The notes under the pieces: model-generated
What the model was told of the DNA's origin: nothing
The model's database searches: none
The model's input: the letters and a program-made list of their open reading frames with translations, nothing else
Part shown: positions 50,601 through 53,600 of the stretch, piece by piece
Numbering within the stretch: the first letter of the stretch is position 1
How the letters are laid out: every line of letters begins with the position of its first letter
Made by a program: the position numbers and the translations under genes
Assembly (NCBI GenBank): GCA_964106645.2
Contig: OZ067038.1
Source of the DNA: Podarcis pityusensis
Lineage: Eukaryota
Direction: 5' to 3' (one strand)
DNA: 64,000 nucleotides

Positions 50601-53600
50601 TGTCAACGTTAGTACTGCGTCTACTACATTTTTCTTTTTGCTACTTCCACCAACATCAGTGGGATCGGGGGGAAGAAAGAATAACTGGGGGAGGTGTAAT
50701 TAGGCCCAAAACTGGAAGTTAGCCACCCCTACTGTAAAGAGAAAAAACCTCAGCAAGTTTCTGGGAATGTCTAAACAAAAAATGACTCCATTACAGATGT
50801 ATGCTTTCCGGGCATTAGTGATCCTTGGGCTGTTGCAGCATGATCTGTGGTACAATCAACTTCGAAGCAGGCATGTTTTTTAACAGTTGTGGTAATTTAT
50901 TCTTTTTCTCATGCCTAATTTTGTTTCACTACTTTACAACCATCCTATAAGGTAATGCATTTCATTTTCAGTCAATACCTTTTCATTCTGAAGCTCTTCA
51001 ACGTGTTTCTTAGCATTTTCAACTTCACGAACAAGAGCATTCTGGAACAAAATTAAGTTCATTAGGACTTTAGAATGTGACCCTTTGCAATACTTAGCAT
51101 TTTAAAGTTTTTAAATACTATCAAAAAGTTATAGATGTGAGCACCTGCTTGTTTAACTCTACTTGTTTGCCTCTTTGGCTCAATTTAAGATACATGAGCT
51201 CTTGTACACTCTCCTTAAATAAGATAAACATTAATATAAGAGAACTACATATAGTTCTTTATCACCTGGTTCCAGGGTGGTGTATAATAAAATACGCTTA
51301 ACAAAAGATCTATCCATCCATCCATCTAAAGAGCCATCTATCTACAAGTAGCCAAAGCTGTAAAAAGAGCAGCATATTGCAGAGCAGGAACCTCACATCA
51401 CTGTTTTAACACACTTAACACAAAAGGTATATTCCTAGGAGAAGTTTCTCTGCCCATAACAAAGTAGTAGTGTTACCACAGCTGTGCACTAGACATCCCC
51501 ACGGTTTATATAGTTCTTTCGCTGGCTCTCTGTCTGGCTAAATATCCATCAATAAATTGGTAAACTACAACTGAAGCTGCTGTTGCATTTCAAGCAACAT
51601 TCATAACATTCACAATTACTTTATCTTCCAGGGCAGCCATTCTTTCTTTAAGGTGAAGCTGAAGTCTCTCATTGGATTCAGACAAAAGTTTATCAACGGT
51701 ATCAGATAAACGTTTATTATGCTCTTCATTCATTTTCTCTCTTTGTCGAGCCTAGATTTTGGGATGTGCGGGAAAGGGGCATAATAAGAAACAAAGTGAG
51801 TTTATGAGCATTTGTACACATCCAAAAGCAAAAATCACATAAGCCAACTCTTTTTTCTGTCTCTAATTTGTAGAAATACTGAAAGTCCCAAAGTTATTGT
51901 GCTATACATATTTTTCACGATGCTCTAATTTATAGCATAATATATATTTGCTTTTTCAGATTCAAGCCTGAGCCTGCCCTAAAAAAATAGCAATGTGATT
52001 CTGAATAATATTTATTATGATAGCTTCCAGAACTTTTAGCCACTGATAATTGTGACAGCAGCTTTACAACAGGTACTTTCACTAAACATGTTCTCTAATT
52101 AGTTATTTAAAAATTTAGTTATAGGAGCTGACATTGTTCTAAGAGGCCAATTCACCCACCAGTGCTATTGAACATCCAAGGCCCACGCAAGTACTTCAAG
52201 TATCCAGTTAAGATATAAGCTTGCCCATTCAGTTCACTTTATGAGGAATATAAGCCTACATTTTGCATTGCTAACCTGATTTTTTTTTCAAGTTTGAAAG
52301 TAGGGTGAGGGGAGATGGTAGTCATCACTGCTTTAACATACCCTTAGCAATTCCTGATTTTTCTCCTCTAGCTGGGCTTCCATCTGCCTCAATCGTTCTT
52401 CAATGTTACCATGTCTTTCTTCAGCCTATTATAAATCATACTGCTAATTAAAATTTGAAAATTCACCCAGAAAAACTATTAGCAAATGAGAATTTTGTGA
52501 TTTATGCAGACTGCTATTTCTGTTCACACACTGCAATGGAATAAAATACATTGAACACTGTTTCTTTCCTACTACCTTTCATTTTAATGGTTTTAAAAAA
52601 GCCATGCATAGAGAAATAAGGATTAGCATCCCTTGTACAAATTTGACCTTCCTTAGCTTGGATGATGTTCCAACTGTTTAGCAAATTTAGCTGCAGAATT
52701 CCCAGGAGGCAAATGTCAGGTAACGAAAGACAATAAGGAACAGAAAAGGTGGCAACAACAGCAACAACAACAACAACAGCAGCAGCAGCAACAACAACAT
52801 GAAGACTATAAAAGGCAGCCAATAATCCATTTGTAAATACTGGGCATAACATTGTTTACGGATATAGTTTACTCCACCAGGAAATGCAGAAGGACTTTAT
52901 AATGCAACACCTACAGCTGACACAAGAGTTGCTCAAGCAACCTCCAAACTATAAAAACATGAATTGTTTTATGTTACAGAACTAAGAAATCATATAAATA
53001 TAAAGTACTATGTCAAGTATTTGTTAACCCAGGGTGAAGGGTGGGATTAGAACTAAATTACCAAGAACAAATTGTTTCCACTGAAGACACAGTTTTTCAC
53101 AGTACAAAGTATCACAGCCCTACCTTTGTAAGTGCTGCAACTCTCTGAGCCAGTTCAGCCTCCACCTCTGGCAGAGTCTCTGCTTTTCTGAGAGTCTGCT
53201 GCAATTTTTGCTCAGCTAGTTCCAGTCGCTCCTGTAACTGCCTGTTCTTATCTTCACTCTAGCAAGGCAAGAACACCATTAATTTACTTATAACTAATGC
53301 TCCATATATTTTTCCAAATGTTACTTTCAAAAGCTCTTTTTATTGGTATTGAACAGTCATGTTGTGAGAAAATTTGTGTGAAATCGTAGGGAATAGCTTT
53401 TATTAGCTTCCAATATCATGCAAGTTGTCTCACACAGAACACTGCTCACAAACGCAGATAATTTTCATGAGCAACATATGAACATGGTATAAGCGTTTCA
53501 AATGGAAATTCAGAAGTTCATTTCCAACATACAGTACACTACAAAAATAACCAAGGATGGAATGCTACTGTAAACAATAGGATACAATTTTTAAAATAAA

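Follow-up and report, generated by a model that had tools for sequence, protein, structure and literature searches.

Is the exon-like segment in one intron of PPFIA1 of the wall lizard Podarcis pityusensis a coding exon that has died, an exon that has been turned to another use, or no exon at all? The initial annotation, made on the window analysed here (64,000 nucleotides in length), regarded it as a fossil cassette exon that corresponds to an optional 75-nt exon of mammals, and that has been disabled by two 1-nt deletions and by loss of its acceptor. The 73 bases quoted there are indeed present at 52720-52648 on the minus strand of the window, and the relic, originally 75 nt in length, lies in a PPFIA1 intron of 698 nt that is in phase 0 at both junctions. 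The features of the region are summarized in Table 1. A DNA search found at least one copy of the stretch in its own genome. Over the matched exon cores, the protein encoded by the window is 99.8% identical to the Podarcis muralis RefSeq protein (2 of 1155 residues differ), and it differs from the proteins of P. raffonei, Lacerta agilis and Zootoca vivipara at 9 of 1147, 17 of 1169 and 18 of 1169 residues, respectively.

Table 1. Features of the fossil cassette exon of PPFIA1 and its surroundings (window coordinates).
Feature	Position	Strand	Remarks
Upstream PPFIA1 exon	53124..53258	-	135 nt, both junctions in phase 0; the rat exon before the cassette has the same length
GTT/GCT microsatellite	52747..52808	-	Adjoins the relic acceptor on its upstream side; one relative has a different repeat length
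Relic polypyrimidine tract	52723..52750	-	82% C/T; matched or beaten by 2/25 real acceptors of the gene
Lost acceptor	52721..52722	-	TA here; AG in intact copies
Fossil cassette exon	52648..52720	-	73 of the original 75 nt
First 1-nt deletion	52710..52716	-	At or near codon 4 (Leu in 27/27 distinct inserts); exact base ambiguous
First AG after relic tract	52691..52692	-	Would give a 43-nt frameshifting exon
Second 1-nt deletion	52662..52666	-	Codon 20 (Thr in 22/27 distinct inserts)
Decayed donor GTCAAA	52642..52647	-	GTAGAA in cattle-type copies; GC in organism F
TGCATG, RBFOX motif	52603..52608	-	40 nt after the fossil donor
Downstream PPFIA1 exon	52342..52425	-	84 nt; the rat exon after the cassette has the same length

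Two other parts of the window deserve mention. An optional PPFIA1 exon of about ten codons is intact at 44702-44734 on the minus strand, so other PPFIA1 cassettes survive here. Downstream of PPFIA1, at about 850-12800 on the same strand, there are reading frames with cortactin-like repeats, which we take to be the cortactin-like neighbour expected beside PPFIA1.

The relic is a short piece, and plain tblastn gave an E value of only 1.0 for its middle part, as might be found for a chance resemblance to the amniote insert. However, a frameshift-aware profile built from 12 natural insert forms gives the relic a score of 52.7, with the alignment ending exactly at 52648, the base preceding the donor GT, and the next best score in the window on either strand is 17.2. 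The null maxima are 30.8 for 40 block-shuffled 64-kb strands and 23.8 for 2000 shuffles of the intron. The match lies in the right intron, in the right order and with the exact 3′ end, and the DNA of the relic aligns to intact cattle-type copies of the exon. The profile score against shuffles refutes chance, whose probability we regard as negligible.

The natural forms of the insert came from 434 proteins, collected by three protein searches (best 120 per search) and one cluster look-up. An insert of 25 residues at the junction of the two flanking exons is present in 141 of these 434 proteins, in 27 distinct forms among the matches listed; this is no frequency, because the third search targeted the insert. 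As for the rest, 220 proteins have no insert, an unrelated insert is found in two, and the remaining 71 lack a flanking motif and were left unscored. The two unrelated inserts, of 20 and 11 residues, belong to Anolis carolinensis (P0076 and P0106; Ensembl/UniRef) and are likely annotation artefacts. The mammalian insert given in that annotation occurs letter for letter in human and other primate proteins (P0355-P0360), and a homologous exon in other amniotes, which the initial annotation had presupposed, exists as well. The insert reads SDLLSSGSSAAKEAKLLELTSKLRK in human (P0355), PDLLPSGNSAAKDAKLLERTSKLRK in Hemicordylus capensis (P0159) and LDCLPSRNSATKDVNLFEYTSKSRK in Python (P0149). Of the 23 unbroken codons of the relic, 18 agree with the Hemicordylus insert, the highest value among all forms, and at positions 13, 16 and 19 the relic carries residues that are present in none of the 27 inserts. 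With its place between the 135-nt and 84-nt exons of PPFIA1 and a homology to the 25-residue insert beyond chance, the relic is the orthologue of the amniote PPFIA1 75-nt cassette exon. A working member of this group has 75 nt, an open frame, and AG and GT at its borders; the lizard copy has 73 nt and no AG.

The intact state of the exon at the DNA level is provided by a metagenome scan that returned 26 loci, none of them a squamate copy. The cassette is found in five of the 26 (L018, L019, L021, L026 and L027), all of which are cattle-type duplicates. In L018 and L026 it is intact, with 75 nt, gtag before it and GTAGAA after it; in L018, the exon before the cassette agrees with a Bos indicus liprin-alpha-1-like protein at all 44 of 44 positions. 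These duplicates (L018:1494-1568 and L026:2211-2285) keep the AG/GT cassette despite diverged flanking exons. In the lizard, the relic is preceded by tttcgtta and followed by gtcaaa, and the acceptor AG is absent as had been claimed. The two deletions are placed ambiguously by a few bases, with 24 co-optimal alignments to each cattle-type exon. The fossil donor has a C at +3, which is seen in none of the 25 real donors of the gene. It matches the U1 consensus at 5 of 9 positions, and so does the donor of the intact cattle-type copy; a weak donor alone is therefore no proof of death.

Are these lesions real? An intact exon spoiled by assembly errors might be suspected where, as here, one deletion falls within a short T run and a microsatellite adjoins the site. 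The DNA of related organisms argues otherwise. It consists of contigs from four runs (organisms A, B, C and F, from two studies), four of the 24 listed; none of the listed holders of the stretch is recorded as RNA, which speaks neither for nor against splicing of the relic. The stretch 52648-52743 aligns to the window with no gap in all four runs, and since both 1-nt deletions are thus common to the relatives, they are not assembly errors, and the deletions of the initial annotation stand. The acceptor position is unchanged in organisms A and B, for which an assembly error is refuted. Loss of the acceptor is fully established in A, B and C; organism C has one substitution whose place is not stated, and restoring AG would take two. 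In organism F, five of the 16 substitutions in the covering contig have no stated place, so that the state of its acceptor is not fully shown. Run X2 has no differing letters in its covering piece, and run X3 has three, all away from the acceptor, together with 24 gap letters, the repeat at 52747-52808 having been skipped in the comparison. Taken as a whole, an artefact of assembly is most improbable. The microsatellite at 52747-52808 abuts the pyrimidine tract of the relic, and its length is variable among relatives.

The same contigs give a view of the later changes. In organism F the donor GT has become GC at 52646, and organisms B, C and F carry another base at 52664. Organism C has two extra substitutions that change amino acids in the old frame, at 52652 and 52687, and both its changes in the real upstream exon are synonymous. 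The substitutions in the relatives fit a loss of constraint on the relic and are only a handful of events.

When was the exon lost? Among the matches listed, the insert is carried by human, birds, turtles, platypus, Hemicordylus and five snakes. The numbers of proteins with the insert in the six squamates, again among the matches listed, are 12 of 13 for Hemicordylus, 1 of 5 for Python, 5 of 8 for Liasis, 1 of 4 for Pantherophis, 1 of 3 for Pituophis and 2 of 5 for Vipera. The inserts of Hemicordylus capensis (P0159) and of snakes (P0149 and P0248) are located at the same junction as the relic, comprise 25 residues and are in frame in the protein models. In lacertids, the insert is present in none of 16 proteins from four species (15 of 63 cluster members listed), and the Podarcis protein models join the two flanking exons directly. 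In the accepted squamate tree, the cordylid and the snakes bracket the lacertids; hence the exon was handed down to the lacertid line and disappeared there afterwards. On this tree, the loss took place after the split from snakes and before the split of the four compared organisms. The exon is in frame in the bracketing outgroups (Hemicordylus, five snakes, turtles, birds and mammals), and the disabling changes are real and shared, the deletions being found in all four runs, as would be expected of an exon lost in one lineage. The claim that the exon is dead in this lineage is supported, with the restriction that the lineage is narrow, since the exon is still in frame in Hemicordylus and in snakes. 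A squamate-wide loss is ruled out by the same in-frame copies.

The insert is absent from the listed isoforms of geckos, Anolis, Pogona, Varanus, Elgaria and Rhineura, as well as from those of skinks, elapids, pit vipers and crocodilians; many listed turtle and bird isoforms also are without it. For a tissue-restricted exon, absence from protein models is weak evidence of loss, and these cases may be further losses or missing annotation. Unlike birds and turtles, crocodilians have the insert in none of their 15 listed proteins (P0168 and P0306-P0319), which is possibly a second loss or missing annotation. The insert of snakes has a history of its own. It differs by at most one residue among the five snakes (P0149, P0245, P0248, P0252 and P0255), and it has drifted from that of all other amniotes, with 10-11 of 23 matches to the fossil. 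This pattern points to a change along the snake stem, after which constraint set in again.

Three features of the relic are at odds with plain death: its pyrimidine tract is still strong, an internal AG looks usable, and TGCATG lies downstream. Could the relic still be spliced in some other form? There are five AGs in 52650-52830. Four of them would give frameshifting exons with a stop (158, 43, 26 and 4 nt) and one would give a 9-nt exon in frame. No AG occurs from 52805 to 52693, and the first one beyond this stretch is the internal CAG at 52692-52691, whose pyrimidine fraction of 0.64 is within the range of the real acceptors. CTGAC, which resembles the branch-point consensus, lies about 25 nt upstream of it. 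If this AG were used together with the old donor, the product would be 43 nt in length and shift the frame, as the initial annotation had stated, and the very first codon of the following exon would be read as a stop, far upstream of later junctions. The relic would then be a poison exon that tunes liprin-α1 through nonsense-mediated decay (NMD). TGCATG at +40 has no listed change in the four runs, though four neighbouring bases differ in organism F, and in rat the splicing of Ppfia1 responds to RBFOX2 (PMC10570038). Several observations speak against such a role. The C at +3 of the donor is without precedent among the 25 real donors, and the splice sites are not conserved in close relatives, with the donor being GC in organism F. 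TGCATG, one of several motifs sought, has a shuffle p of only 0.019 and occurs within 100 nt of one of the 25 real donors; it might be a relic enhancer. The CACN1-12CAC motif is absent from the 222-nt downstream intron of the window, compared with five starts in L018 and eight in L026, a comparison given little weight because the G+C content is 0.30 here and 0.67-0.68 in those loci. On these grounds the poison exon finds little support and we consider it unlikely. Were it true, an amniote-wide coding exon under RBPMS/RBFOX control would have been rewired in wall lizards to a 43-nt poison exon with its RBFOX site kept, and a switch of isoform would have become a switch of liprin-α1 dose, an outcome as improbable as the role itself.

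The in-frame AG at 52658-52657, the only one of the five that keeps the frame, raises the idea that the 3′ end of the old exon lives on as a microexon of 9 nt (52656-52648) that codes for three residues. It would have an AAG acceptor with no pyrimidine tract and would depend on the same weak donor, which is GC in organism F; organism C alters one of its codons. Moreover, an insert is found in none of the 16 lacertid proteins (15 of 63 cluster members listed). We regard this microexon as very unlikely, even more so than the poison exon.

The reading we prefer, and hold to be highly probable, is that the cassette, being in frame and dispensable, went dead in this lineage and is now in decay. In the ancestral state, the skipped isoform would already have been in frame and in use. 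Since skipping keeps the frame and is the common annotated form, a first hit would remove the regulated isoform only. This first hit might have been the loss of the acceptor, or a weakening of the donor or of enhancers, and would have cost only a minor, tissue-regulated isoform. Afterwards, drift would have allowed acceptor loss, the two deletions, donor decay and amino-acid changes to accumulate. With no AG, two bases gone and a weak donor, the flanking exons are likely always joined directly. From its letters, then, the relic would be skipped constantly, and the liprin-α1 isoform that bears the insert is likely no longer made in the lineage.

What has been lost can be judged from the working exon of other species. 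Rat Ppfia1 has a skipped exon of 75 nt between 84- and 135-nt exons, located at rn6 chr1:217680291-217680366 and activated by RBPMS in smooth muscle (PMC6613909). The exon is included at 0.48-0.60 in aorta and at 0.15-0.30 in passaged cells; differentiated cells have values of 0.38-0.44, which fall to 0.08-0.12 upon RBPMS knockdown, and overexpression gives 0.40-0.60 versus 0.07-0.14; RT-PCR primers for the exon are also given (PMC6613909). RBFOX2 and MBNL1/2 co-regulate a panel of exons that includes Ppfia1 (PMC10570038). A review tabulates Ppfia1 'exon 10' among RBFOX targets (PMC12221596), and we infer that this is the same cassette exon. The rat exon belongs to the same gene, has the length of the relic before its deletions and has the same 135/84-nt flanks (PMC6613909, PMC10570038), a match that rests on exon lengths and on the proteins of other mammals, not on rat sequence. 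There are clear differences as well. In aorta, inclusion of the rat exon is about 0.5 (PMC6613909), whereas the lizard copy has no AG and only 73 nt, and the lizard copy is without the downstream CACN1-12CAC motif, unlike the RBPMS-activated rat exon. To judge from rat, differentiated smooth muscle was probably enriched in the isoform that has been lost.

The initial annotation described the insert as a coiled-coil segment. In the AlphaFold model of a 210-residue bird protein (P0018), where the insert occupies residues 85-109, a helix spans residues 68-87, a break residues 88-92 and a second helix residues 93-209. The pLDDT is 58-75 over residues 81-100, and the model is a single chain and silent on the dimer. 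The insert is no plain coiled coil in this single-chain model, since a 5-residue break, with helix after it, interrupts the helix within the insert. On this model, loss of the 25 residues would deprive the CC2 region of a short hinge and of some 17 helical residues that extend the next helix. A PDB search found no solved structure for the insertion site, as its one match, 8z22 (liprin-α2), ends 18 residues before the insertion point. No function of the 25-residue insert was found in the literature examined.

That splicing evolves through the loss of exons whose splice sites decay is well established (PMC12992808, PMC6695735), and among the lineage-specific cases are human CMAH and exon 3 of TNNI3 in shrews and moles (PMC12992808). 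As in the losses described in PMC12992808, the ancestral PPFIA1 exon is kept in outgroups and has been inactivated by cis changes at splice sites. Loss is defined there for constitutive exons, whereas the PPFIA1 exon was already alternative, belongs to a reptile and has no known phenotype. Frameshifted decaying exons have also been catalogued in mammalian genes (PMC2718932). Like those pseudogenic exons, the relic is disabled by frameshifts and decays inside a live gene; in contrast, the catalogued exons are duplicated with the parent in the same gene, while in the lizard one copy was found, and it is other species that carry the exon intact. Lineage-specific exon loss is thus known as a process, and what is new is the PPFIA1 case in wall lizards. 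Neither a report of this exon loss nor any paper on PPFIA1 with Podarcis was found in the literature covered, outside of which lie subscription journals and bioRxiv supplements.

Taken alone, the relic is one more exon loss with no phenotype. The patchy squamate record, with six species carrying the insert among the matches listed, hints at repeated loss; if this were true, the exon would be a marker for the erosion of a tissue splicing programme, bearing in mind that missing annotation does not equal loss. The exon has been kept from platypus to humans and in birds, turtles and snakes, and it is a validated RBPMS target in rat smooth muscle. A lizard lineage that does without it would be a natural knockout, in which the isoform is dispensable.
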